Shown: positions 1,437 to 22,667 of the stretch, one piece after another
How the letters are laid out: every line of letters starts with the position of its first letter
Position numbering within the stretch: the first letter of the stretch is position 1
Assembly: GCA_036679605.1 (NCBI GenBank)
Contig: JAZDCZ010000091.1
Span: 1-64,000, forward strand
From: Gemmatimonadota bacterium
GTDB lineage: Bacteria; Gemmatimonadota; Gemmatimonadetes; Gemmatimonadales; GWC2-71-9
Length of the DNA: 64,000 bases
Direction of reading: 5' to 3'
Translations under genes and position numbers: made by a program
The notes under the pieces: model-generated
Told to the model about the DNA's origin: nothing
Seen by the model: only the letters and a program-made list of their open reading frames with translations
Database searches by the model: none

Positions 1437-1576
1437 CCACTCCCCCCCGAAAGTGCACGTCGGCGATTTTTAGTGCATATTACGATCAAAATCCGAGTGA
1501 GGTGAGCGGCTAAAGGAAGCAACCTCAACTGATTGCGGCGTCGGAGTCGTACCCGAACGCGTCGACCAGGACATAT
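1437..1576 (+). repeat. Conserved 140-bp cassette leader, copy L1
   Basis: CCACTCCCCC..AAGTGCACGTCGGCGATTTTTAGTGCATATTACGATCAAAAT..GAGGTGAGCGGCTAAAGGAAGCAA..CAGGACA; near-identical copies occur downstream. Confidence 0.95.
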
Positions 1577-2146
1577 ACGCAGGAAGACCCGATTGGGCTG
1601 GCCGGTGGGCTCAACCTCTACGGGTTTGCAAACGGGGATCCGATCAACTTCAGTGATCCGTTTGGGCTGTGTCCGGAGGATGTTGGTGGCGACGGAAAGA
1701 CAAGCTCCGTAGATGACTGTTCCGAAGACGTGCAGAATGCGTGGGCAGATGAGCACGTTAAGGTGAGTCCGGGGCACACAACCGACCTTGCTGGAATCGA
1801 TCCAGATTTGTGGAGTGCTGTTGTTCGAACGTCGATGGAACTCAGAGCCGACTTCGGGATATCTGCGGGGAAGGAAGACCGGGGTGGAGCCAGCGCGCAT
1901 AACGGCGGTCGAGCTGTGGACATCAATCGTGTCAATGGAACGCGGCTTCAGGATATGGACGCTGGCGTAGCCGCATCGCTCGGCAATCGTGTTGGGGCTG
2001 GGATCGTGAACCGCGTTGGTGGTCGCGGCATGGAGGTTTTCACGCCGGGTATGGCATTCCGAGTGGATACACGCTTGACACGGCAGTCTAGCTTGGCATT
2101 GCAGGCAAGTCACTTCAACCACGTACACGTGTCTGTCCGTCCATGA
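1577..2146 (+). CDS. Orphan Rhs tip CT1: M15/DD-peptidase-like Zn peptidoglycan peptidase (no evident start codon of its own)
   Basis: Reads TQEDPIGLAGG..SDPFGL|C, then SAHNGGRAVD (H-x6-D) and HFNHVHVS (HxH). Confidence 0.8.
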   Translation, partial: TQEDPIGLAGGLNLYGFANGDPINFSDPFGLCPEDVGGDGKTSSVDDCSEDVQNAWADEHVKVSPGHTTDLAGIDPDLWSAVVRTSMELRADFGISAGKEDRGGASAHNGGRAVDINRVNGTRLQDMDAGVAASLGNRVGAGIVNRVGGRGMEVFTPGMAFRVDTRLTRQSSLALQASHFNHVHVSVRP

Positions 2147-2784
2147 TGGAAGAGGTCGGCATGGCGGTTAATCATATCGATTCTCAGCTGTCCTCATCCA
2201 TGTATCCGGTGTCCGGTGTCCGGTCCATCGTCGGTGGGTGGGGACGGGGTCGATACTGTCTACGGTGTGGACTAGTGTTTGCGGTTGCCGTGGCTATCGC
2301 GTGCGGTGACGGCGAGGAGGACTCTGCGTTCCAACAGTCACGTGAGTCAGAGGCTTCGACTACGGAGGCACCATCAGAGCTAGGCCAGAGCGCCAACCCG
2401 CTGGACTCGCTAATTGAAAACCTCAGGGACCTTCGTGGGTCATTTGTCAACGTAGCACCGGGGAGATGGGACTTCGCTGGTGATCGATCTGCTTTGGTGG
2501 CTTTCGAAGAATTCCGGGACTCGGCTGTTGTTCGGCTCGTGGACTGCCTGGATCGCACCGAACTAGCGGCCGCGACCGTGCAAGAGCAACAAGTACCAAT
2601 GGGGTACATGTGCTACGCTGCATTAGCCCGCGTGGCTTACTACGAGTGGCATCAGTACCAGGACGTGGTCAAAGACCCGTCGTGGCCAGGGGAAGTCGCA
2701 GCCACCGCGAGCGTGGAGGATCTCCGTCAAGCTAAGACGGCTTGGCTCCAGGTAGTGGAAAAGCACCTCTACTTCCTCCATTGA
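2143..2784 (+). CDS. Putative lipoprotein immunity protein for CT1
   Basis: Overlaps the toxin stop; lipobox-like VAVAIAC; true start uncertain. Confidence 0.65.
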   Translation: MMEEVGMAVNHIDSQLSSSMYPVSGVRSIVGGWGRGRYCLRCGLVFAVAVAIACGDGEEDSAFQQSRESEASTTEAPSELGQSANPLDSLIENLRDLRGSFVNVAPGRWDFAGDRSALVAFEEFRDSAVVRLVDCLDRTELAAATVQEQQVPMGYMCYAALARVAYYEWHQYQDVVKDPSWPGEVAATASVEDLRQAKTAWLQVVEKHLYFLH

Positions 2785-2825
2785 CCGTGAACCCGCAACG
2801 TTAGTTTCGAAGACGACGGCAACTC

Positions 2826-3509
2826 ATGACACTCACTCGGATCGCGGCGACCGTCGTAGTAGCACACTCCTGTGCATCGTTCGCCTTCGCGCACCAGGTC
2901 AGTCCATTCACGTGTTTGAGTGCCGGTGATTCCTTGCCGTCGGTGGGGGCGTATGGTCTTTTTGTAGACCGGGGTCGGCTCCTGTGCCTGGCACCCGATG
3001 AGGATGCAGATGGGACACTTGTTCCCTGCCTGCGTATTGGTACACTTCACGTCGGTCAATCACGCACGGATGTCGAAGCACATATTGGCAAGCCGTGGCG
3101 CTCGGTGCACCCACGCCTCCCAGGATTGACCACACGCGCATACCTGGTCTCTCACGACTCCACCGCCAACAGAATTGCGTACTACCTTGTCGAATACGAG
3201 CGTGTCGGTGAAGAGGAGCTGGTCTTCGCTGTCCAGCTCACCGGTGATCGTCTCGACAGCTTGGCGGCCAGTTTCTCTTGTTTGAATCTTGCGGCTGTTG
3301 AGGCGGACGTGCGCCGTCAACTCGGGGCGCCTTCGGGCATGAGTCCGTTTAGGGCAGCTGACGCGGGTGTCGCTGGGGTCGTGTGGTCCTACGAGCCGCT
3401 GCCGATCTCGATCGAGGTCGTCGACGGGAAAGTGTACTCGTTTCGGGTGTGGCGGCCCGGCGATGTCCCGGCGCGGCGGCGTACGCTCACGCTGCTTGAG
3501 AAGCCGTAA
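2826..3509 (+). CDS. Secreted hypothetical protein (possible second or orphan immunity protein)
   Basis: 227 aa with a signal-peptide-like N-terminus. Confidence 0.6.
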   Translation: MTLTRIAATVVVAHSCASFAFAHQVSPFTCLSAGDSLPSVGAYGLFVDRGRLLCLAPDEDADGTLVPCLRIGTLHVGQSRTDVEAHIGKPWRSVHPRLPGLTTRAYLVSHDSTANRIAYYLVEYERVGEEELVFAVQLTGDRLDSLAASFSCLNLAAVEADVRRQLGAPSGMSPFRAADAGVAGVVWSYEPLPISIEVVDGKVYSFRVWRPGDVPARRRTLTLLEKP

Positions 3510-3529
3510 CTCTAATCTCACCTGTTGAA

Positions 3530-3564
3530 GGACAAGGAGCCCGGCTCCGGTCGGGCTCTTGTCC
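3530..3564. terminator. Stem-loop between convergent genes
   Basis: GGACAAG-GAGCCCG..CGGGCTC-TTGTCC inverted repeat. Confidence 0.55.
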
Positions 3565-3569
3565 CCGGC

Positions 3570-3971
3570 CTACGCCGAGCGCCGTCGCGATTGGACGAGC
3601 GCATCCACAAACTTGAGGACTGCGCGCTGATCCGCGGGCGGGAGTTCTTCGATGCGCTGGAGCCGTTTGAGGAGTCGGGCGCTTTTTTTGCCCCGTCGGT
3701 CGGCCGGCGGTTTCACTGCCAGCAACTCATCGGTGGATACGTCCAACGCCTGGGCGAGGGCCGCGAGGATCGGCCCGGGCGGGCTCGCCTCATCTCGCTC
3801 ATAGTACGCCACCATCCGGTTGGAGAGGCCGAGGCGCTCGCCCAACTCCTCTTGGGTGAGGCCGCGGCTTTGGCGGAACTCTGCGAGTCGCGGCCCGAAG
3901 CCGCCCTCAGTGCTCGGTTGTTTCCGTCGTCGGTTCGCCACCACGGCACTCCAGTCGGTGATCAGGTGCAC
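3570..3971 (-). CDS. XRE-family HTH regulator of the element
   Basis: RLAEFRQSRGLTQEELGERLGLSNRMVAYYE HTH; divergent from the primase. Confidence 0.9.
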   Translation of the reverse strand: MHLITDWSAVVANRRRKQPSTEGGFGPRLAEFRQSRGLTQEELGERLGLSNRMVAYYERDEASPPGPILAALAQALDVSTDELLAVKPPADRRGKKSARLLKRLQRIEELPPADQRAVLKFVDALVQSRRRSA

Positions 3972-4113
3972 GGCATCAACTCCCAGTTAAGGTAGGGCCG
4001 GTTCCAGAGGCGGCTCACAACTTCTTGCCTGGAACTTACAAAAAGTGTAATATTCTGGCCACCACTTGTTTGAGTGGGATTTGGGCCCCTTACCCCCTTG
4101 ACAGGATTTTGGA

Positions 4114-4482
4114 ATGGCGCGGATTCCAGAAGCTGAGCTGGCGAGGATCAAGCAGCAGGTCTCGCTGCTGGAGCGTGTGCGAGCGGAGGGAGTGGAGCTT
4201 AGGCGCCACGGTGCTGACTGGATCGGCTTGTGCCCGTTCCACGAGGATGTGAATCCGAGCCTGGTGATCTCGCCGGCGAAGAATCTGTGGCACTGTTTGG
4301 GTGCGTGCCAGGTGGGCGGGAGTGTGATCGACTGGGTGATGCGGTGTGAGGGAGTGAGTTTTCGGCACGCGGTGGAGCTGTTGCGGCACGAGCTGCCCGA
4401 TGTGAGTGCTGCCGGCGTGCGTTTCGATTCTACGCTGGACGACGCGGCACTACTCGGTGCCGTTGGTCACCTACTACCATGA
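4114..4482 (+). CDS. CHC2 zinc-finger N-terminus of the DNA primase (frameshifted from the rest)
   Basis: CPFHED..WHCLGAC motif; continues in another frame near 4460-4470. Confidence 0.85.
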   Translation: MARIPEAELARIKQQVSLLERVRAEGVELRRHGADWIGLCPFHEDVNPSLVISPAKNLWHCLGACQVGGSVIDWVMRCEGVSFRHAVELLRHELPDVSAAGVRFDSTLDDAALLGAVGHLLP

Positions 4483-7048
4483 GACGCTGCTCGGCAGTGC
4501 CGAGGCGATCGCGTATCTCGAGAAGCGGGGTCTCGATCACCGGGCGGCGATCGAACAGTTCCGGCTGGGCTATGCCAACCGCACGCTCGCCTACCGGCTG
4601 CCGGACGGCAAGCGGGGCCGTGTGCTGCGGGAGCGGCTGCAGCGGCTCGGTATCTTCCGGGCGAGCGGTCACGAGCACCTAAACGGCTCGCTGGTGGTGC
4701 CGGTCTTCGATAGCCAAGGAAACGTCTCCGAACTCTATGGCCGGAAGATCAGGGATGATTTGCGGGCGGGCACGCCGGTGCATCTTTATCTGCCGGGACC
4801 GCATCGTGGTGTGTGGAACCTTCAGGCCTTGAAGGAATCGAAAGAGATCATTCTCTGCGAAGCGCTGCTCGACGCGCTGACCTTCTGGTGCGCGGGCTAC
4901 GCCCACGTGACGGCGAGCTACGGGATCGAGGGATTTACGGCGGAGCAGCTCGAGGCTTTTAAGCGCTACGGCACTGAGCGGGTCTTGATCGCCTACGATC
5001 GGGACGAGGCGGGCGATCGAGCGGCGGAGCAGCTGGCTAAGCGTCTCACCAAAGCAGGCATCCGCTGTTACCGGGTGCAGTTTCCGAGGGGGCTGGATGC
5101 GAATGCGTACGCGCTGGAGCATGGGCCGGCGGAGCAGAGCTTAGGACTCGCGATCCGGAGCGCGGTGTTTCTGGGCCAGGGCGCGGCGGCCCCCGCGGTC
5201 CCGGCGGTCCCGCCACCCATGGCGGCTAAAGAGAAAAAGCCAGTTGCTTCTTCTTTAGCCGCTGATTCTGCTCCCTCACGGCCGATTGTTTCTCCTGAGC
5301 CTCAAGCGCCACCGCCGGATGTCCCGGTGCGATTGGACGGGGATGACGTACACGTCGAACTGGGCGATCGTCGCTACCGGATCCGGGGGCTCCGGAAAAA
5401 CAGGAGTCCGGATTTGATGAAGCTGAACTTGCTGGTGCGTAGGGGCGAGGGTGTGCACGTGGACACGCTGGACCTCTATTCGGCGCGGCCGCGGGCCGCG
5501 TTTGCGAAACAGGCCGCGGCGGAACTCAGCCTCAAGCCCGAGGTGCTGGCGAAAGATCTGGGCACTGTGCTGCTCCGGTGTGAGGCACTCCAGGGGGAGG
5601 AGAGCTTTGGCACCCGGGCGCAACCCGAGGAGGCGGTGACGCTCTCCCCCGCCGAGCGACAGGCTGCTCTCTCACTGCTCAAGGATCCACACCTGTTAGA
5701 CCGGATTCTCAGCGACTTCGACCGTGTGGGTGTGGTGGGTGAGGAGACGAACAAGCTGGTGGGCTACTTGGCGGCCTTGTCCAGGAAGCTGCCGGAGCCT
5801 CTGGCGGTGATCGTGCAATCGGCGTCGGCCGCGGGGAAGACGTCGTTGATGGAGGCGGTGCTGGCCCTGGTGCCGCCCGAGGAACGGGTGCAGTACTCGG
5901 CGGTGACGGGCCAGGCGCTCTTCTACATGAACGACACCGATTTGAAGCACAAGATCTTGAGTGTGGTGGAAGAAGAGGGCGCCGAGCGGGCGAGCTATGC
6001 CTTGAAGGTATTGCAGAGCGAGGGCGAACTGACGATTGCGTCGACCGGGAAAGATCCCCAGACGGGCAAGCTCGTGACCCATGCGTACCGGGTCGAGGGG
6101 CCGGTGATGATCTTCTTGACGACGACGGCGGTCGACGTGGATGAGGAGCTGTTAAACCGGGCGCTCGTGCTCAGCGTGGACGAGGACCGGGCGCAGACCA
6201 GGGCGATCCACGTGAGGCAGCGGGAGCGTCGCACGCTGGAGGGTCTGTTAGCCAGAGCCGAGCGAACCGAGATCCTGACACTGCATCGAAACGCCCAGCG
6301 GCTCTTGGAGCCGGTGGCGGTGGTAAACCCCTACGCCCCGCAGCTCACGTTTCTGGATGTGAAGACGCGTACGCGTCGCGATCGCGAGAAGTATCTGACG
6401 CTGATCGAGACGGTGGCCCTGTTGCACCAGCATCAACGTGAGAAGCAGACCATCGAGCGTGACGGTACCGCACTCAGCTACATCGAGGTCACAAAGCCAG
6501 ACATCGCGATCGCCAACCGCTTAGCGGCCCGGGTGCTGGGCCACTCACTGGACGAGCTGCCGCCACAGACCCGGGGCTTTCTCACCAAACTGGACGACTG
6601 GATCGCGTCCCAGTGTGAGCAGCGCCAAGTGGAGCGCGGTGCGATCCGTTTCCTTGCGAGAGACGCAAGAGAGATAACTGGCTTAGGAGCCACGCAGGTG
6701 AAGCTGCACTTGAGACGCTTGATCGATCTCGAGTACATCCTGGTCCACCGTGGCGAGCGCGGCCACGGTGTGGCCTACGAACTGCTGTACGACGGCGACG
6801 GAGAGGACGGGAAGCGCTTTCTGCCCGGTCTGCTCGATGTGGAGACTCTAAAGGAGCCGTACGATCCAGGGCGGTCGGGGGGAAACCACAAGCGGTCGGG
6901 GGTCGGTCGGCCCCGGGTCGGGCCCAAGTCGGGGGGAGGCCGGACCGATGAAACAGCACCTATGGCCAATGCTCACAGCCTCTTGCCCCTTGAGCGGTCG
7001 GATTGCTCAGAAAGCACTTCTGGGGCGGCAGAAGTGGTGCAGTCGTAG
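4406..7048 (+). CDS. Toprim primase fused to a P-loop ATPase/helicase (C-terminal part)
   Basis: Toprim motifs CEALLDAL and YDRDEAG; Walker A SASAAGKT; Walker B-like VVEEE; Pro-rich linker. Confidence 0.85.
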   Translation: MLPACVSILRWTTRHYSVPLVTYYHETLLGSAEAIAYLEKRGLDHRAAIEQFRLGYANRTLAYRLPDGKRGRVLRERLQRLGIFRASGHEHLNGSLVVPVFDSQGNVSELYGRKIRDDLRAGTPVHLYLPGPHRGVWNLQALKESKEIILCEALLDALTFWCAGYAHVTASYGIEGFTAEQLEAFKRYGTERVLIAYDRDEAGDRAAEQLAKRLTKAGIRCYRVQFPRGLDANAYALEHGPAEQSLGLAIRSAVFLGQGAAAPAVPAVPPPMAAKEKKPVASSLAADSAPSRPIVSPEPQAPPPDVPVRLDGDDVHVELGDRRYRIRGLRKNRSPDLMKLNLLVRRGEGVHVDTLDLYSARPRAAFAKQAAAELSLKPEVLAKDLGTVLLRCEALQGEESFGTRAQPEEAVTLSPAERQAALSLLKDPHLLDRILSDFDRVGVVGEETNKLVGYLAALSRKLPEPLAVIVQSASAAGKTSLMEAVLALVPPEERVQYSAVTGQALFYMNDTDLKHKILSVVEEEGAERASYALKVLQSEGELTIASTGKDPQTGKLVTHAYRVEGPVMIFLTTTAVDVDEELLNRALVLSVDEDRAQTRAIHVRQRERRTLEGLLARAERTEILTLHRNAQRLLEPVAVVNPYAPQLTFLDVKTRTRRDREKYLTLIETVALLHQHQREKQTIERDGTALSYIEVTKPDIAIANRLAARVLGHSLDELPPQTRGFLTKLDDWIASQCEQRQVERGAIRFLARDAREITGLGATQVKLHLRRLIDLEYILVHRGERGHGVAYELLYDGDGEDGKRFLPGLLDVETLKEPYDPGRSGGNHKRSGVGRPRVGPKSGGGRTDETAPMANAHSLLPLERSDCSESTSGAAEVVQS

Positions 7049-7056
7049 TCGTAGCG

Positions 7057-8067
7057 ATGATGGAGCGCTTGATAGGAGAGCATGTGGCCTCACTGGAGGC
7101 GGCCCACTACGCGATGTCGACGGTGGGGAGTCGCCGGCGGAACCTCTTGCACTTTGCCGGCTGGGCCCAAGTACGGGGGATCACACATCCGGCCGAGATC
7201 ACGCTGCCTGTCTTAGAGCGCTACCGCTACACGCTCTATCACACGCGCAAGGCAAACGGCAAGCCCTTGGGCTGGGGTGCGCAGGCGCAGAAGCTGCTTG
7301 CGGTGAAACAGTTTCTCAAGTGGGCGACCAGGATGCATGTGATAGCATGCAACACGGGCGCGGAACTGGGTCTGCCACGCAAGCCGCAGCGTCTACCCCG
7401 GAGCGTGCTTACTATCTCGGAGGCCGAGCAGGTCCTGGCCCAACCTGATCTCGCAGATCCAATGGGTGAGAGAGACCGCGCCATCTTGGAGACGCTCTAC
7501 TCGACGGGCATGCGCCGCAACGAACTCATTGCGTTAACGCTGCCCGATATCGACGCCGAGCGTGGCACGGTGTACATCAGGGAGGGCAAGGGCAAGAAGG
7601 ATCGTGTGGTGCCGATCGGCGAGCGGGCGCTTCTGTGGATCGAGCGCTACGTCGATCGAGTGAGGCCGCTCTCGGTGATCGAGCCGGATCCGGGGAATGT
7701 GTTTCTCACCAAACGTGGCGCACGTCTAAGACCCAATCGTCTGACGGAACTCGTGCATGGCTACGTCACCCAATCGGGCACGGCCAAGACCGGGAGCTGT
7801 CATCTGTTTCGCCACACGATGGCGACCCTGATGCTGGAGGGCGGAGCGGACATCCGCTACATCCAGGAGATGCTGGGGCATGCGCAGCTCGCCACCACGG
7901 AACTCTACACCAGAGTGTCGATCGGGCGCTTGAAGGCGGTGCACACGAGAACTCATCCGGCGCACAGCACACGTGAGCTACGCGCGAAGCGCGCGAGAGA
8001 AGACGAAGGTCATGCACTCTTTCGCTCTTTAGCTGCCGAGCAGAGTGACGTGGAGGTGTGCGGCTGA
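7057..8067 (+). CDS. XerC/XerD-family tyrosine recombinase
   Basis: Full catalytic set: GMRRNE (R), GKGKKDR (K), HLFRH, LGH, TELYT (Y). Confidence 0.93.
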   Translation: MMERLIGEHVASLEAAHYAMSTVGSRRRNLLHFAGWAQVRGITHPAEITLPVLERYRYTLYHTRKANGKPLGWGAQAQKLLAVKQFLKWATRMHVIACNTGAELGLPRKPQRLPRSVLTISEAEQVLAQPDLADPMGERDRAILETLYSTGMRRNELIALTLPDIDAERGTVYIREGKGKKDRVVPIGERALLWIERYVDRVRPLSVIEPDPGNVFLTKRGARLRPNRLTELVHGYVTQSGTAKTGSCHLFRHTMATLMLEGGADIRYIQEMLGHAQLATTELYTRVSIGRLKAVHTRTHPAHSTRELRAKRAREDEGHALFRSLAAEQSDVEVCG

Positions 8068-8085
8068 CATGTGCCCTTGGGCCCA

Positions 8086-8290
8086 GCGGCGCCGCGGCGT
8101 GCGCCCTCTGCGAGCCCTCTGGGGCTCGCTCCGGGATCGGGCAAGCACGCTCGCTCTGCTCGCTGCGTATAACAGCCCGTTATACGGCACTTGCCCTCGC
8201 CCGCCGCGCCGCTCGGCCTAAAGGCTTAACGTAACAAAGTTACGTTAACTGGGGCCGCGGATGATCGATCCGGGGCCGCGGGCACTGGAA
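8086..8290. other. Palindrome cluster (candidate recombination site or origin)
   Basis: CGTATAAC-N5-GTTATACG at 8166-8186; TTAACGTAAC-AAA-GTTACGTTAA at 8226-8248; GGGCAAG/CTTGCCC pair; hairpin at 8110-8129. Confidence 0.65.
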
Positions 8291-8329
8291 GAAGGGGCTG
8301 GCCCTGTTAGCTTATCCAATGGGAGGTGA

Positions 8330-8548
8330 GTGATGGCGCATCCAAAATCTGATGACCTCGCCGCTCGTATCCGACGGCTGCCGCAGACAGAGCAGCGACG
8401 GGCACTCGCGTATGTCGAAAGTCTCGAGTGCGCCGCTCGGGGCACGGCGCTCCTGCCCTTGGTGAACTCGATCCCGGCCGAGGACCTCGACGCCATAGCG
8501 GCGGCGATCGAAGCGGATTGCGAGCGCGTGGATGCCGCTGACTGGTAG
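8330..8548 (+). CDS. Antitoxin (VapB-like, by position)
   Basis: Small ORF with an acidic tail, overlapping the PIN gene. Confidence 0.7.
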   Translation: MMAHPKSDDLAARIRRLPQTEQRRALAYVESLECAARGTALLPLVNSIPAEDLDAIAAAIEADCERVDAADW

Positions 8549-8933
8549 TTATCTCCTTGACACCAACATCGTCATCGGACTACTGGCGGGCGACGCCGAC
8601 ATCAGGGAACACGTGTCAGCGGCGGGGCGGGTGTACGTCCCAAGCATCGTGCTGGGTGAACTCTACTACGGTGTACAGAAGTCCGGCCGCCCGACCGAGA
8701 ATGCGAAGCGCATCGATGCGCTCGCTCAGTCCGCGGCCGTGCTGGCGTGCGATGCCGCTACCGCCACGGTGTACGGGGAGCTGAAAGCCCGTCTGCGCGA
8801 GCGGGGGACGCCAATTCCCGAGAATGATTTGTGGATCGCCGCGCTCGCGGTCCAACATGACCTCACGCTCGTCACGCGTGACGCGCACTTCGACGCTGTT
8901 CCGGTCCTCTCCACCGTAGCCTGGGGGCGCTGA
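8532..8933 (+). CDS. vapC: PIN-domain toxin
   Basis: YLLDTN, GELYYG, ENDLWIAA and TRDAHF motifs. Confidence 0.92.
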   Translation: MPLTGSYLLDTNIVIGLLAGDADIREHVSAAGRVYVPSIVLGELYYGVQKSGRPTENAKRIDALAQSAAVLACDAATATVYGELKARLRERGTPIPENDLWIAALAVQHDLTLVTRDAHFDAVPVLSTVAWGR

Positions 8934-8940
8934 CTCCGCC

Positions 8941-14615: not shown

Positions 14616-14765
14616 AGGGAAACCGCTCCGCCCAGTGGCGCAACGGCCACGCCCCTCGAAGAGCAGTATGGCTAGCGGTACCGTCCGTCGGGTGAGTACG
14701 GTGATTCTATCTATGCAGTTTCGGACCATGGCAGCTTTTCATGTCCGCAAGACTTTGTTCGTAGG

Positions 14766-15148
14766 CTAGGTGCTCCATCGCCGTGACTCGACCAGTGCAT
14801 CCACAAACTTGAGGACAGCCCGCTGATCTGATTGGGGTAGTTTTTCGACCTGCTGGAGCCTTTTGAGGAGCCTTGCCCTTTTGGGCGAGGCTTTCTCTTT
14901 CACAGGCTTGAGCCCTAGCAGTTCGTCGGCACTCACCTTGAGCGCTTTCGCGAGGTCAACGAGCAGCGTGCCGGGTGGCTGGGCGTCGTCCTGCTTATAA
15001 TAAGGCGCCATCCCTCATGTCTTGCTGGGTGAGGTCGCGGCTCTTGCGGAGCCGATCGAGGCGGGGTCGGATAACTTCTTGTTCCGTACTCTCGGCGTGC
15101 CTCTTGGCCAAGGCGGTCGCCCATTCGGTGAAGTTTCGCCGAACGCAC
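14766..15148 (-). pseudogene. Frameshifted paralogue of the element XRE
   Basis: C-terminus QPPGTLLVDLAKALKVSADELLG..DQRAVLKFVDALV is intact; the N-terminus is disrupted. Confidence 0.8.
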
Positions 15149-15165
15149 CCGTTTCGGACATCACC

Positions 15166-15206
15166 TTGACTGTGGCCATAAGTGTATGTACAGTAATGCT
15201 GTACAG
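15166..15206 (+). promoter_or_regulatory. yefM-yoeB promoter/operator
   Basis: TTGACT -35 box and two TGTACA palindromes (15187, 15200), the known YefM operator core. Confidence 0.7.
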
Positions 15207-15223
15207 TTAATCAGGGTGTGCCG

Positions 15224-15514
15224 ATGGCCATTCGTACTACTTATACAGACGCCAGGCAGCGACTCGCCGAACTGTGGCGACGCGTTGAAGAAGACCGTGA
15301 ACCGGTGATAATCACACGCCGTGGACACCAGGAGGTAGCCCTCGTGGCTGCCGACGAACTCGCAAGCCTGCAAGAGACCGCCCACCTGCTGCGGTCGCCG
15401 GCGAATGCGCGCCGCTTGTTGCGGGCGCTCGACCGTGCACTGGCGGGTGGCGGCAGACGTCGCTCGATGGAGGAATTGCAGCGGGAGTTGGACCTTGGGC
15501 CAGCGGCGGGGTAG
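15224..15514 (+). CDS. yefM: Phd/YefM antitoxin
   Basis: TYTDARQRLA..PVIITRRG..ETAHLLRSPANARRL. Confidence 0.9.
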   Translation: MAIRTTYTDARQRLAELWRRVEEDREPVIITRRGHQEVALVAADELASLQETAHLLRSPANARRLLRALDRALAGGGRRRSMEELQRELDLGPAAG

Positions 15515-15773
15515 AGCCCGCAAGGCGATCTTCCAGAAGGAGTTTCTCGAGGATCTGCGATTTTGGGTAGGAAACGACCGCAAGACCGCGTTGCGGTGCC
15601 TGGATCTGGTGCAAGCGGCGTTGCGCGACCCGTTCACCGGTATTGGCAAACCTGAGCGATTGAGATATCTGGGTGGCAGCATGTGGTCTCGGCGATTGAC
15701 ACAGGAGCATCGCGTGGTGTATCTGGTTCGGCACGATCGCATCGATTTTCTGCAGGCACGCTACCACTACTGA
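15495..15773 (+). CDS. yoeB: Txe/YoeB toxin
   Basis: PFTGIGKPERL..WSRRLTQEHRVVY..RYHY; start approximate. Confidence 0.92.
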   Translation: MGQRRGRARKAIFQKEFLEDLRFWVGNDRKTALRCLDLVQAALRDPFTGIGKPERLRYLGGSMWSRRLTQEHRVVYLVRHDRIDFLQARYHY

Positions 15774-15795
15774 TCTTTCGGGAACCGCCTCGACC

Positions 15796-15936
15796 CCACT
15801 CCCCCCCCCAAAGTGCACGTCGGCGATTTTCAGTGCATATGACGATCAAGATTAGAGTGAGGTGAGCGGCTAAAGGAAGCAAGCGCAACTGATTGCGGCG
15901 CCCTGGTCGTACCCGAACGCGTCGATCAGGACAGTT
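15796..15936 (+). repeat. Cassette leader L5
   Basis: 141-bp near-copy of L1. Confidence 0.95.
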
Positions 15937-16491
15937 ACGCAGGAAGACCCGATTGGATTAGCCGGTGGGCTCAACCTGTATGGGTTTGCCAATGGGGATC
16001 CGGTCAATTTCTCGGATCCGTTTGGGCTGTGTGTAGACAAGGACGCGACCTGTGACGATCTGGTTCGGCAACTGCGACTTCAAGAGGGCGGTGAGTTTCA
16101 GAAAGCTGCTGACTTGTTTGACGGTTACCGGGGTGGTCAAGTCAGTTGGGTCACTGGTGACAACGCTTTACTGAATGTCAACTTTGCTAATCGAGATGGG
16201 AATGCCGAGACTTGGGTTGGAGGCATCTTCAACCCAGACAATGGCGACATTCTCCTGAACGCTGAGTTTTCGGGAGGTGACCGGTTGATCACCGCGGTAC
16301 ACGAATCACTTCACATAGCCGGTCTCGGCGATCAGCAGGATAGAGCGCAGATCTTGGGAGTCGAGCAGCGCGCGTACAACCAACTCTCTCCTGCAGCACA
16401 GGCCTCAGCAGTTCGACATTCAGATAGGTTCTTCCACGCATTTGGACCTCAGGCTGGAGTGCATCCCGTACCTGTTCGGGAGCGTAGGTGA
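15937..16491 (+). CDS. Orphan Rhs tip CT5: zincin metallopeptidase
   Basis: Rhs core end followed by VHESLH (HExxH). Confidence 0.78.
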   Translation, partial: TQEDPIGLAGGLNLYGFANGDPVNFSDPFGLCVDKDATCDDLVRQLRLQEGGEFQKAADLFDGYRGGQVSWVTGDNALLNVNFANRDGNAETWVGGIFNPDNGDILLNAEFSGGDRLITAVHESLHIAGLGDQQDRAQILGVEQRAYNQLSPAAQASAVRHSDRFFHAFGPQAGVHPVPVRERR

Positions 16492-17066
16492 TGATAGGAC
16501 CTCGCGTAACTCCCGGCTTCGCGCTGCTGATGGGAGCTGTCCTTGCGGTATCATGCACTACAGAACCTTCCCGGAGGTTTGATAAAGGGGGGCCACTTCA
16601 CTTGGACCCCACTAGTTGGCCGGCTGGGCTCTCTCTCGTGGTCGTCACTGTCGATGATACCGTTCGCGAGGGTGACCGCGTCCAGATTGGTTACGCAATT
16701 CGGAATAGGGGATCCGCAATGCGCTTCCGAAATGATCCGTTGGATTTTGGTTTGGAAGTTTCCGGGCCGCGTGGAGAGATCCGTCCACAGCAGCAGTTGG
16801 AATTTCCGTCACTAGGCGACTTGCCGGATCTCTATCTGCCGGATGGCAGTATGCTGGTCAACATCATTGATATCACCTGCATTAACGGTCAATACTTCTT
16901 GAAGAGTCGCTCCGACTGCATTGCCAGTTTTCCTCTTGGTCTCGGCGAATTTCGGGTGATAATTACTTATCGCGGAACGGTCGTCTCGGACTCCGTCGAT
17001 ACCAGGGCGCAAGCCACAGGACCTCGACTAGTCGACACTACCACTGTCGTGATTGTTCCGGAGTAG
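16488..17066 (+). CDS. Lipoprotein immunity protein for CT5
   Basis: Overlaps the toxin stop; lipobox-like LAVSC. Confidence 0.72.
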   Translation: MMIGPRVTPGFALLMGAVLAVSCTTEPSRRFDKGGPLHLDPTSWPAGLSLVVVTVDDTVREGDRVQIGYAIRNRGSAMRFRNDPLDFGLEVSGPRGEIRPQQQLEFPSLGDLPDLYLPDGSMLVNIIDITCINGQYFLKSRSDCIASFPLGLGEFRVIITYRGTVVSDSVDTRAQATGPRLVDTTTVVIVPE

Positions 17067-17169
17067 TCCCGTCCTGGTTTCTCAAGGTGAACAAGCGCTT
17101 GCCTAGTCGGCCCGCTGGTGACTCGCCCTGAAGTTGAGTCGGCGCTACCTTGTAAGCGAGGAGGCGGAG

Positions 17170-17376
17170 ATGAGTGAATTGGTCTTTGTGGTAGAGGAAG
17201 CAGCCGAAGGGGGCTACATCGCGCGGGCGGTGGGTGCCTCGATCGTGACGGAATCCGATGACCTCGATGGACTGCGGGCTCAGGTGCGGGACGCGGTTCA
17301 ATGTCACTTCGATGAGGGCGCGCGTCCCAAGCTGATCCGCTTGCACCACGTGCGCGACGAAGTCATAGCGGCGTGA
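17170..17376 (+). CDS. Short HicB-like antitoxin
   Basis: ELVFVVEEAAEGGYIARA..AVQCHF; lies upstream of hicA. Confidence 0.8.
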   Translation: MSELVFVVEEAAEGGYIARAVGASIVTESDDLDGLRAQVRDAVQCHFDEGARPKLIRLHHVRDEVIAA

Positions 17377-17621
17377 GGCTGGCGCGGGATCTCTCGGGCC
17401 GCGCGTTGGCGAAGGCCCTGGAGACGCTGGGATACCAGATCACGCGGCAGACGGGTAGCCACCTGCGTCTCACAACCCGAGAACGCGGGGAGCACCACGT
17501 GACGATCCCCAACCACAAGGCCCTGCGCGTGGGCACGCTCGCCAGCATCCTTGACGAGGTCGCTATCCACTTTAGCCTTGAGCGTGCCTCCGTTGTCGAG
17601 CGCCTCTTCGGCCACCGCTGA
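17373..17621 (+). CDS. hicA: HicA-family toxin
   Basis: LGY..RQTGSH..TIPNH..GTLASIL. Confidence 0.9.
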   Translation: MRLARDLSGRALAKALETLGYQITRQTGSHLRLTTRERGEHHVTIPNHKALRVGTLASILDEVAIHFSLERASVVERLFGHR

Positions 17622-17658
17622 GCACCGTCTGGCCCGGTCCCCTTCAGCGATCCCACCG

Positions 17659-17715
17659 CACTCCCCCCCCGAAAGTCCACGTCGGCGATTTTGAGTACAT
17701 ATTACGATCAAAATT
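17659..17715 (+). repeat. Cassette leader L6 (5' part only)
   Basis: Match stops after GATCAAAAT and runs into GCGGAT repeats. Confidence 0.9.
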
Positions 17716-17717
17716 GT

Positions 17718-17836
17718 GCCGCGGATACTAACGCGGATTGACGCGGGTGGGCCCGCGGATGATTACACTGATGGCCGCAGATAGGAACGCGGATTAACAC
17801 GGATGGGGCCGCGGATGATTATGCCGATAGCCGCGC
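17718..17836. repeat. Cluster of short (A/C)CGCGGAT repeats
   Basis: About nine degenerate units, the same as those flanking the GxxExxY gene. Confidence 0.8.
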
Positions 17837-17909
17837 ATGTAGGTGAGGTCTTGTCTCAGGTGCGCCGCGAGCTGTCACTCAGGATGAACCTCCTGAACTG
17901 AAGCCGTTC

Positions 17910-18049
17910 CCACTCCCCCCCGAAAGTGCACGTCGGCGATTTTCAGTGCATATTACGATCAATATTCGAGTGAGGTGAGCGGCTAAAGGAAGCAAGCGCA
18001 ACTGATTGCGCCGCTCTGATCGTAGCCGAAAGCGTCGACCAGGACAGTT
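17910..18049 (+). repeat. Cassette leader L7
   Basis: 140-bp near-copy of L1. Confidence 0.95.
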
Positions 18050-18628
18050 ACGCAGGAAGACCCGATCGGGCTGGCCGGTGGGCTCAATCTCTACGGGTTT
18101 GCCAACGGGGATCCGATTAATTTCAGTGACCCGTTTGGGTTGTGTCCAGTGTGGCTCGATGGTATTCCGTGCGTAGCTCCGGTTGCCAACTTCATGACGC
18201 CAGCGCGGGCACCGGGTCAGCGGAGTGGAGTCGGCGGTAGTGAATTTGGCTTTACGCGTAGCGGTGGTGCTCTATTCCACAACGGTTTTGACCAGGATGC
18301 GCCTGTTCTGACCTCAATTGCAGCTCCAGGTGACGGTACACTGACCGTCGGATTCAACGACAAGTCCGGGCTCAACGTCACACTTGATCTTGGGAATGGA
18401 GCGTCCGTGAGTTTCTCTCATCTGTCAAAAGCCCCTGCTGGGCTCGCTGTTGGCGAAGGCCTCCAAGTACAGGCTGGTCAGACGATCGGTTACGCGGGTA
18501 CAAGTGGAAACTCTGCGGGATCCGGACGCGATCCTCATGCCCACATCGTAACACGCGTGAAGCAACGAACGTGTAATCCACGCGACTTCTTTTCTGAAAG
18601 TGGTGGGGGTGGCAGTTGTGGGAACTAA
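18050..18628 (+). CDS. Orphan Rhs tip CT6: M23 peptidoglycan endopeptidase
   Basis: HNGFD (HxxxD), SHLS, GQTIGYAGTSGNS and PHAH (HxH). Confidence 0.9.
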   Translation, partial: TQEDPIGLAGGLNLYGFANGDPINFSDPFGLCPVWLDGIPCVAPVANFMTPARAPGQRSGVGGSEFGFTRSGGALFHNGFDQDAPVLTSIAAPGDGTLTVGFNDKSGLNVTLDLGNGASVSFSHLSKAPAGLAVGEGLQVQAGQTIGYAGTSGNSAGSGRDPHAHIVTRVKQRTCNPRDFFSESGGGGSCGN

Positions 18629-19317
18629 TGTGCTCTAGGAATGCGGTCATTGTGCGTGCTAGTGGGCTATTGAGAACCGGCAGCATCGTCCTTCTGGTTC
18701 TACAGTTCGCAGCGTGCCGAAGTGCAAAGAAACAGGACGATGCCACTCCGCATACTTCTCGCGACCTGGCCTGCGATCCTGCAGAAGTGGTCGCGGTGAG
18801 TTCCGGAGACAAACAGGTCGCGGTTGTAGATCTAGATTGCGACGGTGTAAGTGACAGCGTGACAGTTACGTGGAAGATACACGAGACTGGGCGCCGTCCG
18901 ACTCTTACCGTGCACGGCTCTTTAGGTGGTGAGATATCGACGGAAGGAGATTTTCTTCCAGAGCTTGTTTCCTTCGGCGACCTCGACAGTGACGGAATGC
19001 GAGACATACTCGTTGTTAGCGTCACTGAGTCGAGTGTGTTCGCTGAAGTCGTCATGGTTCACCGTGACGGGGATCTCAGTCTAGTGACTTTTCCTAGCCT
19101 TTCGTTGCGCCGAGCAATGCAATACCGGTTCCACGACGTAGGGTGGAGTTCGGGGTGCCTTGGCACTCTCATGCCTCGGCTGGAGCGATTAGGTACGGGA
19201 GGTCTTGCAGTGTCGTTGGCTACTGGAGACTACCGTCGGGAGGGTGACTGTGCACGCGCTCGTCGTCAGATATTGCGCGTCGTAGACCAGCGCTTTGAAC
19301 CGGTTGAGGAACGCTGA
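18628..19317 (+). CDS. Lipoprotein immunity protein for CT6
   Basis: Lipobox FAAC; DLDCDG and DLDSDG loops. Confidence 0.72.
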   Translation: MCSRNAVIVRASGLLRTGSIVLLVLQFAACRSAKKQDDATPHTSRDLACDPAEVVAVSSGDKQVAVVDLDCDGVSDSVTVTWKIHETGRRPTLTVHGSLGGEISTEGDFLPELVSFGDLDSDGMRDILVVSVTESSVFAEVVMVHRDGDLSLVTFPSLSLRRAMQYRFHDVGWSSGCLGTLMPRLERLGTGGLAVSLATGDYRREGDCARARRQILRVVDQRFEPVEER

Positions 19318-19377
19318 GTTCGATGCCGGAGCTATGTGAGCACATCCCGGCTTCGCTGGGCTGTGTGTTTTTGGTAG

Positions 19378-19442
19378 CTACGCCGTGCGCCGTCGTGACT
19401 CGACGAGTGCGTCGACGAACTTGAGGACAGCTCGCTGATCTG
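19378..19442 (-). pseudogene. 65-bp 3' remnant of the element XRE
   Basis: Encodes DQRAVLKFVDALVESRRRTA*. Confidence 0.85.
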
Positions 19443-19443
19443 A

Positions 19444-20107
19444 GAGCCGCGGATAAGAACGCGGATAGACGCGGATCTTTCGTACCTGCCCGTGGGTTGC
19501 ACGACATTACCAGCCTCTGGAACTCTGCGCGTCTCCCAAAATTGAGCCGCAGATAATTACGCTGATGCACGCGGATGTTTCGTACCTGGCTGCGGGTTGC
19601 GCGACATTACCAGCCTCCGGAACTCTGCACGTCTCCCAAAATTGAGCAATAAGCCAACTTCGAGTTTCGTGGCGCGCAAATAGTTGAGCACTTGCGCCGT
19701 GTGGGAAGGCTCTAGCTGTGCGAGCGCTTTGATCTCGACCAGTACCTTGTGTTCCACAATGAGGTCTGTGCGAAATCGAGCGATTGGAAGGCCGCGATAA
19801 CGGACTTCGGCTGGGGTTTCGGTGTCGACGAGAAGACTGGAGGCCCGGAGATCGTGTGCGAGGGCCCGCTGATAGACTCGCTCGGCGAAGCCTCGGCCGA
19901 GTGTGTTGAAGACCTCATAGAATGATCCGATTATATTGTGGGTGATGGCGGCGTGGGGCAAGTTGGGGTGCAGGGTTGGCGGTTCGTTCATGGACCGAAT
20001 ATGGTGCCCTCTGCGCGAATTGCGGTATCGATTTTTTGCGCAGTGAAGCCTTTTCCCGCATTGGAGTGCGGTTAATCCGCGTTAATCCGCGCACCAATCC
20101 GTGGCCC
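19444..20107. mobile_element. GxxExxY gene bounded by inverted GCGGAT repeat ends
   Basis: Left end GAGCCGCGGATAAGAACGCGGATAGACGCGGAT; right end ATCCGCGTTAATCCGCGCACCAATCCGTGGCCC. Confidence 0.6.
19557..19991 (-). CDS. GxxExxY protein (PD-(D/E)xK nuclease fold)
   Basis: LGRGFAERVY, RTDLIVE..VEIK, QVLNYL and GLLLNFG motifs. Confidence 0.92.
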   Translation of the reverse strand: MNEPPTLHPNLPHAAITHNIIGSFYEVFNTLGRGFAERVYQRALAHDLRASSLLVDTETPAEVRYRGLPIARFRTDLIVEHKVLVEIKALAQLEPSHTAQVLNYLRATKLEVGLLLNFGRRAEFRRLVMSRNPQPGTKHPRASA

Positions 20108-20108
20108 G

Positions 20109-20672
20109 GAAGACCCGATCGGGCTGGCCGGTGGGCTCAACCTGTATGGGTTTGCAAATGGGGATCCGGTTAATTTCAGTGATCCGTTTGGGTTGTGTAA
20201 GGACAAGGACGGTGAAGAGCTGCCGGCGGATCAGTGTCGAGACGCAACCAAGCAGGAAGGCAAAGCGACCTACACAGCTGCGGTCGCAATGGGTTCGTGG
20301 ACGTGGACGATGGGGAGAGAGGGTGAGCCGGCAAAGGACGTGGCGAACCAGGTTGGCGACTGCACCGACTACTGCGAGTCTGCTCACCGAGGCGCGGGAC
20401 TTCCCGGCTTGGATCCGCGGCCAGCGACATCCGGGTTCGCCTCTTCCTCGGACTACCGCGCTTTGGGATCGGAAGCCCCCCAAGCTGGCGATGTGATCGT
20501 TCAGGGTGGGCATGCCGGCATTTTCAGCGGGCAGTACGATAGTCAGGACAGACCACTCGGAATCCAGAACGGCGGCAGTGGAACGAAGGTGATTCCCTGG
20601 GGCCCCAATGTCTCTGGACTCGCCAAGGTGAACCCCGTGTTCTACCGGCGCCAGGTTCCAAAGAACCCCTAG
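20109..20672 (+). CDS. Orphan Rhs tip CT7: NlpC/P60-like cysteine peptidase/amidase
   Basis: EDPIGLAGG..; GDCTDY and GDVIVQGGHAGIF give a Cys-His dyad. Confidence 0.82.
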   Translation, partial: EDPIGLAGGLNLYGFANGDPVNFSDPFGLCKDKDGEELPADQCRDATKQEGKATYTAAVAMGSWTWTMGREGEPAKDVANQVGDCTDYCESAHRGAGLPGLDPRPATSGFASSSDYRALGSEAPQAGDVIVQGGHAGIFSGQYDSQDRPLGIQNGGSGTKVIPWGPNVSGLAKVNPVFYRRQVPKNP

Positions 20673-20687
20673 CCGCACGGAGCAAGC

Positions 20688-21212
20688 ATGAAGACGAAAT
20701 CGACACTAGCGGCAGTGATACTTATACTTACAGCTTGCAGTTCTGCAGGAGAGAGCCAGATGCGGGCGGAAGCTGCGAGAAGTCTAGTCAAACAATTCGT
20801 AGACGCCGAGATGGATGGTGATTCAGAAACGGCGTGGGCACTCCTGACGGGATGTGACGTCTTGCCAACGGCCGACTACATCGAGCCGACGCTCTCATAC
20901 GAGATTCTGGATGCTATCGAACAGAATGGGCGAGTCACGATCCCAGTACGGTACGTAGTTCTAGGGAAGGCATGGTCGTATGACGTCCGGCAGGTCGGGC
21001 AGCACAACTGGCGATTTGTGCCCGACGTCCGCGTCGATACCGTTGAATTCTCCATCGACGATGATCGCGAGGGGCCATTGAGGATAGTCTGCGCCTACCT
21101 CCCGCCGATACATGATGCGGCTATGCAGATGGCAGGAACGATTGAGCGGTTTGATGAAGAATCACGGGCGGCTTGGGAGGATGCGATGCGAAAAGCGCGG
21201 GAGCTACGGTAA
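20688..21212 (+). CDS. Lipoprotein immunity protein for CT7
   Basis: Lipobox LTAC. Confidence 0.75.
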   Translation: MKTKSTLAAVILILTACSSAGESQMRAEAARSLVKQFVDAEMDGDSETAWALLTGCDVLPTADYIEPTLSYEILDAIEQNGRVTIPVRYVVLGKAWSYDVRQVGQHNWRFVPDVRVDTVEFSIDDDREGPLRIVCAYLPPIHDAAMQMAGTIERFDEESRAAWEDAMRKARELR

Positions 21213-21233
21213 CCTGCGCTGGTGCGACTGCTG

Positions 21234-21605
21234 CTACGCAGAGCGCCGTCGTGATTCGACGAGGGCGTCGACGAACTTGAGGACGGCGCGTTGATCTGAC
21301 TGGGGCAGTTTTTCTACCTGCTGGATCCGTTTCATGAGCCTCGCCTTTTTCGGTGAGGCTTTTGGTTTCATGGGTTTCAATCCAAGTAGCCCGTCGGCGG
21401 AAACCTTGAGCGCGATTGCCAGGTCGGCGAGCAACGCGCCGGGCGGTTGAGCATCCTGTGTTTCGTAGTAGGCGATGACCCGCTGTGACACATCGACCAT
21501 GTGACCCAACTCGGCCTGTGTAACGTCCCGGGTCCGCCGGAGGTCTGCCAACCGCGGGCCAAAGCCTTCGATGGTCCGCTGCTTCATCTGCAACACCTCG
21601 CTCAT
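21234..21605 (-). CDS. XRE regulator, intact paralogue of 3570-3971
   Basis: EGFGPRLADLRR..TQAELG..DQRAVLKFVDALVESRRRSA. Confidence 0.88.
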   Translation of the reverse strand: MSEVLQMKQRTIEGFGPRLADLRRTRDVTQAELGHMVDVSQRVIAYYETQDAQPPGALLADLAIALKVSADGLLGLKPMKPKASPKKARLMKRIQQVEKLPQSDQRAVLKFVDALVESRRRSA

Positions 21606-21720
21606 GTCGTGACCTCCGAAGGGTAAGGGTGGTATCCGGTAACGGTGCGTCTGACTTGGACAGTTGGCGATACAGCCTGCGTGCCTTGGCAATGGAGGGA
21701 GCCGAGCTTAGACTGATACC

Positions 21721-21957
21721 ATGCCGACGGTCCTCCGGACTGGCCCTTACCGATTCTTCTTCTATTCCGCCGATCGGGAGGAGCCGCCGCATGTGCACGT
21801 CGAGCGCGACGACTGCCGGGCGAAATTCTGGCTTGACACGGTCCGGCTGCACGACAGTACGGCGTTCCAACGCCCCGAACTTGGGCGCCTGGAGGGGATA
21901 GTGCAGAGGCATCACGACGAGTTGCTGAGAGCATGGCATGACTTCTTCGCCGCTTGA
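21721..21957 (+). CDS. DUF4160 protein (putative TA component)
   Basis: YRFFFYSAD.EPPHVHV..AKFWL. Confidence 0.88.
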   Translation: MPTVLRTGPYRFFFYSADREEPPHVHVERDDCRAKFWLDTVRLHDSTAFQRPELGRLEGIVQRHHDELLRAWHDFFAA

Positions 21958-22243
21958 ACTCCGGTCAGGGGTGGCTCAGACCGTCACGGTGACCGACGAG
22001 GCCCTGGTCGTCGACTTGGTGGATGGGCGAACTGTCTCTGTGCCGCTCATGTGGTTCCCCCGCCTCCTGCATGGCACACCTGCCGAGCGCGGCGAGTGGC
22101 GCTTGATCGGGCGCGGCGAGGGCATTCACTGGCAACGACTCGACGAGGATATCAGCGTCGACAGTCTGCTGGCGGGGCGCGCGTCTGGCGAGGCTCAGGC
22201 TTCGCTTCAACGTTGGCTCGAGAACCGCAAGGCTGCTGGCTGA
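21938..22243 (+). CDS. DUF2442 protein (putative TA component)
   Basis: DGRTVSVPL.WFPRL..GIHW..LDEDISV. Confidence 0.88.
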   Translation: MTSSPLELRSGVAQTVTVTDEALVVDLVDGRTVSVPLMWFPRLLHGTPAERGEWRLIGRGEGIHWQRLDEDISVDSLLAGRASGEAQASLQRWLENRKAAG

Positions 22244-22292
22244 AGTTACGTTAACTGGGGCCGCGGATGATCGATCTGGGGCCTGGGGGCAC
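22243..22292 (+). repeat. Copy of the right half of the post-recombinase site (8237 onward)
   Basis: 34-bp identity: AAGTTACGTTAACTGGGGCCGCGGATGATCGATC. Confidence 0.9.
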
Positions 22293-22457
22293 CGAACGAC
22301 GACTCGGTGCGTGACTGACTGCGTTTGGGCATTGCGGTGGGGTGCCGGTGGCCAGAGTGAACTCAAGTAGAGCGCTCTCGCAAGTGCAGCTGGTGGATCG
22401 CGGCTAAAGCCGCACGAGCAAGAGAAGATTCCGTCCCCACCACCCGCGAAGCGCGCC

Positions 22458-22513
22458 CCACTCCCCCTCAAGAGTGCACGTCGGCGATTTTCAGTGCATA
22501 TTACGATCAAAAC
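22458..22513 (+). repeat. Cassette leader L8 (5' part only)
   Basis: Truncated at the same point as L6, then TGTGCCGCGGATA. Confidence 0.9.
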
Positions 22514-22666: not shown

Positions 22667-22667
22667 T

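Follow-up and report, generated by a model that had tools for sequence, protein, structure and literature searches.

The 64,000-nucleotide stretch of a Gemmatimonadota genome analyzed here (the window; contig JAZDCZ010000091.1) opens with the 3′ end of an rhs gene, behind which lies a tandem array of start-less Rhs toxin tips with their immunity genes. Six of these tips are joined at one and the same base to a non-coding leader of about 140 bp, and we consider it likely, on the comparisons of sequence set out below, that this leader-core junction is the attR site of an integrative element that targets rhs genes and swaps their toxins.

The six full leaders (Table 1), given as 140 bp long in a first-pass annotation of this DNA, measure 138–140 bp, and over their final 128 bp they are 80–96% identical in pairwise comparison. 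As that annotation had it, all six join Rhs sequence at the same base, the first of the stretch TACGCAGGAAGAC common to all cassettes, which follows the words GACAGT or GACATA in the cassettes and AGATT in the long core (92–96); its positions for the six full and two partial leaders are likewise confirmed. The partial leaders at 17659 and 22458 comprise the first ~56 bp only, and both end at the identical base. In the 6.7-Mb, 434-contig genome, all eight leader matches fall within this array, and the sites of the window are all direct repeats. As the window opens at a contig end, the intact core is visible for 190 bp only, and the same long core is present on four further contigs of the genome; what had been called the long gene need not be the full-length one.

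An alternative raised beforehand, that an ordinary gene ends in the leader, does not hold: the leader is non-coding, and the genes 5′ of it differ between copies (various toxin-antitoxin (TA) or immunity genes). Each reading frame is open in at most 20 of the 34 related leaders, so that a coding leader with a common frame was rejected, and conservation of the leader lacks codon periodicity (0.77/0.69/0.76, compared with 0.91/0.98/0.63 for the core). A structured RNA was also rejected, an Rfam scan of positions 1–30000 giving one weak match, which lies outside the leaders.

Across the junction lies an imperfect 13-7-13 inverted repeat (CGAYCAGGACA-- / TACGCAG / GAAGACCCGATYG), whose centre in the window, TACGCAG, is the exact start of identity. 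The first-pass annotation had placed the symmetry upstream of the junction, as CTGRTCG-N13-CGAYCAG. That repeat is present, but in only 4 of the 34 related leaders, all four from the window (its inner part, GRTCG-N13-CGAYC, is in 20 of 34), and it has only the outer portion of the left arm in common with the conserved repeat, which straddles the junction. To score arm symmetry, the right arm was fixed at the E codon and the left arm was compared with its reverse complement by spacer. Among leaders sorted into subtypes by left-arm motif, the window subtype peaks at a spacer of 7 (7.4 of 13 positions, n = 35, one of these rows being the unpublished genome G015, on which no claim rests) and two other subtypes at 8 (8.0, n = 29) and 9 (7.3, n = 11). 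Elsewhere the peak is at 6 in G019 (9.0, n = 4) and at 8 in G037 (7.0, n = 11). At a spacer of 7, the score of intact cores is 5.8 (n = 30), and the null for arm matches is 3.2–3.7 with a standard deviation of ~1.6. A site in G019 is a near-perfect 9-6-9 repeat.

The boundary of the site emerges from leader-borne and intact cores of the same source, compared in 27 pairs from 7 sources, 14 of them from G045, with each partner picked by downstream identity. Relative to the D codon, 25–27 of the 27 pairs are identical from −10 to +7, falling to 21–23 at −12 and −11 and to 8 at −13, with scattered matches out to −21. Further upstream, TACGAYC and GRTCGTA, which are parts of the repeat in the first-pass annotation, are each found in 26 of the 34 leaders and may be accessory binding sites. 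Separately, GCGGCTAAAG forms an inverted pair in the primase linker (5221–5260) and recurs in leaders and at the recombinase 3′ end (8033), a possible binding site for an element protein.

The constancy of the junction in other genomes was a test set beforehand, and its outcome in related genomes and metagenomes supports the att-like reading. A 238-bp query matched 19 of 61 genomes, mostly through the core, with matches spanning the leader in G001 (four places), G048, G056 and G015. A pattern made of leader motifs only was found in 7 of 401 genomes of the phylum with no control matches, and the core follows it at the same offset in G356, G101 and G327. In metagenomes the leader pattern hit 89 stretches, of which 80 were returned as loci and 66 are distinct, several coming from related samples and hence not independent. 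Sorted by a profile restricted to the bases that precede the end of the pattern, these fell into 50 above −10 bits and 15 below −40, with one unscored; one of the 50 lies at a contig edge. D-P-x-G stands at offset 50–53 in 44 of the 49 evaluable high-scoring matches (30 at 51 and 12 at 53), and in the remaining five the core starts at the same place and then decays, while none of the 15 low-scoring chance matches has a core. The core fragment's length is thus constant in 6/6 full window copies and 44/49 metagenome matches.

One toxin can be seen in both of its expected states. In G045, from the same clade, the tip carried by an open rhs frame of 1,831 codons (C2:1,243,244) is found again after a leader (C2:1,274,750) and is identical from the junction on. 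Three G045 tips in total are present in both settings, attached to an intact core and following a leader, at 98–100% identity over 305 nt. No tip was found in both states between the window's genome (G000) and G001, the latter being fragmented.

The recombinase family of the window is also present in 54 of 5,426 complete Escherichia coli genomes. In the four regions examined, tandem units that carry SymE occupy the ansP-vgrG-rhs-pptA locus. In all eight leader-borne cores captured, from these regions and from one circular record, the first codon is the D of DPIG, and two of three E. coli leader-plus-tip queries matched genomes from this codon onward only. Two pairs of strains supply filled and empty alleles: 7,928 bp of NZ_AP027254.1 are missing in NZ_AP045173.1, and ~30 kb of NZ_CP196708.1 are missing in NZ_CM192132.1 and NZ_AP027258.1. 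In both, the flanks are 99.5–99.99% identical and the tip parked in the filled strain is fused to the long rhs gene in the empty one. The left and right junctions share a 15-bp core, located at the DPIG codons, in both pairs and then diverge to ~70% identity, as counted by eye, an ungapped display overstating the divergence of the second pair through a one-base indel. These alleles fit insertion and excision alike, and on either view the crossover lay within 15 bp in both pairs. Two circular records of 8.8 and 11.3 kb (NZ_CP055112.1 and NZ_CP072857.1) contain such units and nothing else, although they may be collapsed tandem repeats.

The enzyme encoded in the complete unit of the window has the catalytic motifs of a tyrosine recombinase in alignment and passes the NCBIfam PRK01287 cut-off, while it stays below those for XerC, XerD (215 of 335 and 217 of 330 in the Xer equivalog test) and IntI. 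Its best 80 relatives lie in 77 loci from many phyla, with an Rhs core nearby in 49. For 57 of 86 recombinase copies the sequence extends 1.5 kb or more downstream, and in 37 of these 57 a core lies within 4.5 kb. The codons at which the truncated cores start are specific to the recombinase clade (F|TQ, Y|NY or F|YR, S|ARYY, T|xGARD and others). In a tree of 50 rows, all 15 recombinases with the F|TQ junction fall on one branch (100/99), the spacer subtypes follow its sub-branches, and the window enzyme groups with the two full-length metagenome recombinases that have spacer-7-type leaders. The YMQARF class comprises two rows, the junction of L096 lying further upstream and outside it. A phage collection gave no recombinase match at E 1e-55.

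Some relatives are arranged differently. In G037 (L036-L037, L243) and G019 (L038), tip arrays with a lone recombinase stand behind short sites, without a 140-bp leader; five tips at a second G037 locus (L243) are inverted relative to the long rhs gene, as in a shufflon. In the acidobacterial loci L095 and L098, tips run in both orientations from SYYRARYY and the core directly after the recombinase is long. In L228 (NZ_CP074171.1, 875-30906), the same XRE-primase-recombinase-TA unit stands in tandem within a CdiA locus, where the first orphan and the full-length cdiA share 14 bp at the VENN codons.

From the anatomy of the array, the fixed junction, the symmetry, the E. coli alleles and the two states of one G045 toxin, we infer the following cycle. 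The leader would be the element-side arm of a site-specific recombination site. An element of 7–8 kb would circularize in the order leader, Rhs core tail, toxin, immunity gene, XRE, primase/helicase, recombinase, TA pair and leader, and the circle may replicate. Its tyrosine recombinase would cut the leader site, with the spacer as the presumed overlap, and cross it with the corresponding codons in an rhs gene of the host (F/T-Q-E-D-P in this genome, D-P-I-G in E. coli). After integration the frame of the long rhs gene would continue into the newly arrived toxin, and the previous toxin, now lacking a start codon, would come to lie with its immunity gene downstream of the leader. Successive integrations would extend the array, units lacking primase and recombinase could move only in trans, and a stored toxin could return through excision between sites. 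Integration of a circle at these codons would explain the fixed junction, the start-less tips, the order of the units and the empty alleles in one step.

For the upstream ~125 bp of the leader, accessory binding during recombination seems the better assignment. It is possible, but doubtful, that most of the leader is instead a replication origin or a regulatory region for the primase-helicase or XRE genes, with the last ~13 bp alone serving recombination. GCTAAAG occurs at 10 sites in 25 kb against 1.14 expected, in leaders, in the primase gene (5225 and 5259, an inverted pair) and at the recombinase 3′ end, and the G037 and G019 arrays manage with short sites and no long leader, both of which would suit such a role. 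However, the upstream motifs stand at an almost constant distance from the junction (offset 51 or 53), as expected for a role in the synapse, and none of the eight sigma-70-like promoter matches in a scan of 1–20000 falls in a leader. This alternative is compatible with an attR site at the junction and differs only in the part given to the upstream 125 bp.

Several observations weigh against an rhs-targeting element. A leader without a following core is found in G044 and at one G045 site, and 20 of the 57 recombinase copies with sufficient flank have no Rhs core downstream; 50 open reading frames (ORFs) behind recombinases without a core gave two toxin domains in Pfam (Tox-REase-7 and AHH), TA pairs and mostly no match. 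The arm matches are modest, sorting the subtypes by left-arm motif favours a peak, and a 9-bp overlap would be unusual. Fifteen of the 50 tree rows lie outside the main junction classes ("other or longer"), and the leader and recombinase are inherited together and many rows are near-copies, so their agreement in the tree indicates congruence rather than proof of action. The E. coli enzyme is 45% identical to that of the window and its site lies 10 bases further downstream. For the window element itself, whose primase is frameshifted, we found no empty allele and saw no circle, and the single sequencing run available, as contigs only, holds no joint linking unit ends. Finally, homologous recombination also acts on these loci, where mosaic cores from crossovers inside the core are present: of 31 variable sites, only 2 separate core 4 of the window from the long core, and G045 carries one tip on two different cores.

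That homologous recombination acted alone, by C-terminal displacement, we nevertheless regard as improbable. An ancestral unit ending in a leader would then have spread by RecA crossovers in the ~90-bp core and by tandem duplication, the junction being a frozen accident and the recombinase aiming elsewhere. Besides the mosaic cores, this is favoured by TA-plus-leader modules that G000 and G001 share at 96% identity, with different DNA in front of them, and the route itself has been published for Salmonella, with 522 bp of 95% identity (PMC3967940). The published model, as far as it is set out in the cited text of PMC2935791, predicts variable core lengths, whereas here they are fixed; leaders from other families of the phylum keep their motif spacing while the intervening bases diverge; other recombinase clades have fixed junctions of their own; and both E. 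coli pairs cross within 15 bp although the rest of the core is ~70% identical by eye. Homologous recombination thus contributes, yet it explains neither the 15-bp window nor the clade-specific junctions.

We give still less credence to the idea that the site is real but is worked by host XerC/XerD, as at dif or pdif, with the element's enzyme accessory or dispensable. The genome does hold other Xer-like genes (C133, C251), the array is long despite its sole primase being broken, and G001 has four leaders but no recombinase match at E 1e-40 in its 190-contig assembly. Against this, the spacer class and the target codon change with the recombinase clade of the element, and the symmetry peaks at 7 rather than at the 6 of dif (a layout taken only partly from PMC10210955). 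Least likely of all is recombination of a folded single strand of the attC type, as in integrons, which a cassette array of TA pairs beside a tyrosine recombinase and a primase-helicase that could expose single strands might suggest, since a hairpin site is not supported, five of the six leader strands folding no better than shuffles (z-scores 0.03, −0.54, 0.48, 0.76, −0.27 and −2.05), and the enzyme is not IntI-type, scoring 111.7 against the integron-integrase cut-off of 265 (TIGR02249).

The array of the window is itemized in Table 1. Its complete unit (1576–9079; 7,504 bp) comprises core tail and tip, immunity gene, an ORF without assignment, XRE, primase-helicase, recombinase, PIN-type TA pair and leader, while the preceding unit (97–1575) holds tip, immunity gene and leader only. 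The later units, each with tip, immunity gene, mostly an XRE-gene remnant, its own distinct TA pair and leader, are deletion derivatives of the complete element. The primase-helicase, frameshifted here, is a single open frame in all 59 relatives examined. Of the six cassette frames shown, five are closed in every copy by stops no more than 20 codons before TQEDP, and an ATG start is absent from that stretch throughout, so production of the parked tips as such is improbable. One sequencing run, probably its source, holds the window DNA as contigs only; because its unitigs break at leaders and cores and none joins unit ends, the order of the units rests on the given assembly.

Table 1. Features of the rhs locus and its array in the window
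Feature	Position	Strand	Basis or remark
3′ end of intact Rhs core and toxin tip CT0	1-640	+	open from contig end; TIGR03696 72 bits; ORF list
Putative attL/attB-type core site in intact core, centre TACGCAG 97-103	84-116	.	arms match 5/13
Probable CT0 immunity gene	648-1250	+	position; no Pfam match
Leader 1, putative element-side arm	1437-1575	+	
13-7-13 core site 1, putative attR type, junction base 1576	1563-1595	.	arms 7/13; family mean 7.4 vs null 3.2
Start-less core tail and CT1 (to 2146), then probable immunity gene (2143-2784)	1577-2784	+	
XRE/HTH_3 repressor, RstR-like	3570-3971	-	
CHC2 zinc finger and Toprim primase-helicase	4114-7048	+	frameshift between the two domains
Tyrosine recombinase, PRK01287/NF002331 family	7003-8067	+	R-K-H-R-H-Y motifs; 394.6 bits vs cut-off 371
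Small gene and PIN toxin, VapBC-like TA pair	8330-8933	+	
Leader 2, right end of complete unit	8941-9079	+	
Core site 2, junction base 9080	9067-9099	.	
Defective unit: CT2, immunity, XRE remnant (~10036-10258, minus strand), Gp49/HTH_37 TA pair	9081-11183	+	
Leader 3 and core site 3, junction base 11331	11192-11350	+	
Defective unit: CT3, immunity, nucleotidyltransferase-HepT TA pair	11332-13528	+	
Leader 4 and core site 4, junction base 13728	13590-13747	+	
Defective unit: lysozyme tip, LprI immunity, XRE remnant, YefM-YoeB	13729-15773	+	
Leader 5 and core site 5, junction base 15936	15796-15955	+	
Defective unit: putative metallopeptidase tip, immunity, small gene and HicA	15937-17621	+	DUF6782 weak, E 0.002
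Partial leader cut by GCCGCGGATA-type repeats	17659-17714	+	in G001, uncut after the same HicA module
Leader 7 and core site, junction base 18049	17910-18068	+	
M23 peptidase tip and probable immunity gene	18050-19317	+	
GxxExxY gene amid GCCGCGGATA-type repeats, putative separate invader	19557-19991	-	TIGR04256; repeats D6-D9
Leaderless unit: core cut at GGAAGAC, tip, immunity, XRE (minus strand), DUF4160-DUF2442	20102-22243	+	
Partial leader, cut at same base as 17659 copy	22458-22512	+	
Last leaderless tip and immunity gene	22936-23810	+	
38-bp tRNA-Sec 3′-end copy	24951-24988	+	identical to C65:37670-37707

Seven different TA pairs lie in 8330–24872, about one per unit, and three TA-plus-leader modules of the window are 92–96% identical in G001, where other DNA precedes them. 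Behind the recombinase (8160–8290) are the palindromes CGTATAAC-N5-GTTATACG and GTAACAAAGTTAC, part of which recurs at 22243–22290 and in G001. GCCGCGGATA-type repeats, found at 17715–17830, 19444–20101 and 22513–22935, around the GxxExxY gene, cut both partial leaders at one base, shorten two cores at GGAAGAC and surround a 43-bp fragment of intact core (22665–22707); with the GxxExxY gene they look like a second element that prefers these sites.

On contig C65, a 927-residue Rhs N-terminus behind tRNA-Sec runs off the contig end. As the tRNA-Sec 3′ end recurs at 24951–24988, a single island with gene and array is suggested, of which this copy is the probable right end, the join to C65 being presumed. 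The tRNA-Sec island (G000:C65:37604-42854) also carries a sigma-54-type regulator, and its Rhs N-terminus has Ig-like repeats by eye. Beyond the array lies a bacterial microcompartment (BMC) locus at 26353–29738, with two BMC shell genes, an aldehyde dehydrogenase and a phosphate propanoyltransferase.

We lean, if only slightly, towards a wider proposal, that the window holds one member of an undescribed class of toxin-swapping elements spread across phyla. Each PRK01287 clade would have its target in conserved pre-toxin codons of polymorphic toxin genes, at several spots of the Rhs core and at VENN of CdiA in one Enterobacter locus; the circles would replicate, re-arm the host on arrival and reload archived toxins by excision, and in some lineages just the recombinase and short sites would remain, serving as a library of toxins in the manner of an integron or shufflon. 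An rhs-targeting element as such would supply a dedicated enzyme for an exchange of toxins that has until now been put down to chance homologous recombination, would explain the tandem recurrence of a gene mislabelled "xerC" in toxin arrays, and would offer integrases with in-frame target sites in a very widespread gene. With a named recombinase family, a mapped 15-bp core and empty and filled alleles in E. coli, the question of how tips are acquired becomes directly testable.

Rhs C-terminal displacement, as presented in the cited parts of Jackson 2009 (PMC2935791) and Koskiniemi 2014 (PMC3967940), proceeds by homologous recombination, a circular intermediate pushing the old tip downstream, and new Rhs and CdiA tips are attributed there to rare homologous recombination with no enzyme known (PMC2935791). 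The window resembles this in having an intact rhs followed by start-less tips with immunity genes, and differs in the fixed core length, in the unit's own recombinase and primase, and in the E. coli crossover within 15 bp. Mobile islands with Prim-Hel, cHTH and SymE near RHS and haemagglutinin genes (Kawano 2007, PMC1891008, Fig. 7A) have the same gene set as our units; the window's recombinase passes the cut-off of the NCBIfam PRK01287 "XerC" family, and the E. coli units carry SymE. The passages cited give no att site, rhs target or toxin exchange. In bee-gut bacteria, integrase-like genes beside Rhs arrays were suggested to act in capture (Steele 2017, PMC5727410); no site is mapped in the text cited. 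That integrase or Prim-Hel genes occur together with Rhs loci is already in print; the site and the swap were not found in the literature searched. The rAID loci of Bacteroidales and polyimmunity loci with XerC/D-like genes (PMC12247911, PMC3482391), as there described in part, hold immunity genes between intergenic sites; they share with the window a tyrosine recombinase, conserved intergenic motifs and an array of conflict genes, but the site of the window lies inside coding sequence and loads toxins. We found no description of an rhs-targeting integrative element in the full-text literature as searched, including bioRxiv 10.64898/2026.07.13.738213, although subscription journals, supplements, island databases and Additional File 1 of PMC3482391 may bear on novelty; term searches of PMC11606950, PMC3414803, PMC8138268, PMC3032704, PMC12884075 and bioRxiv 10.64898/2026.09.08.750204 returned nothing relevant.

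Like other tyrosine-recombinase elements, the one in the window has its own enzyme with catalytic residues and a symmetric core consistent with an overlap of 6–8 bp (peak at 7, with one subtype at 9); a precise empty site with a short core is seen in the E. coli members only (two pairs, 15 bp). Islands with a tyrosine integrase that rebuild the 3′ end of the gene they target use a short core and an attP that carries the target's 3′ part, and they form tandem arrays. Here, by contrast, the restored end is that of a different toxin, so that the product is changed and the old one archived. In the shufflon (Rci/PilV) a recombinase changes the C-terminus of a protein, and the integron is a store of cassettes; unlike the former, the sites of the window are direct and not inverted, and unlike the latter, there is no attC hairpin, IntI-type integrase or relevant Rfam match, and each complete unit is a mobile element of its own. 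XerCD/dif modules (pdif) and rAID differ in turn, in that the window has no 11-6-11 intergenic site around whole genes; its site, with a spacer peak of 7, lies within Rhs codons. The sequence comparisons give good support to a real recombination site at the leader-core junction, which would make the element a variant of the tyrosine-integrase elements with an unusual consequence.

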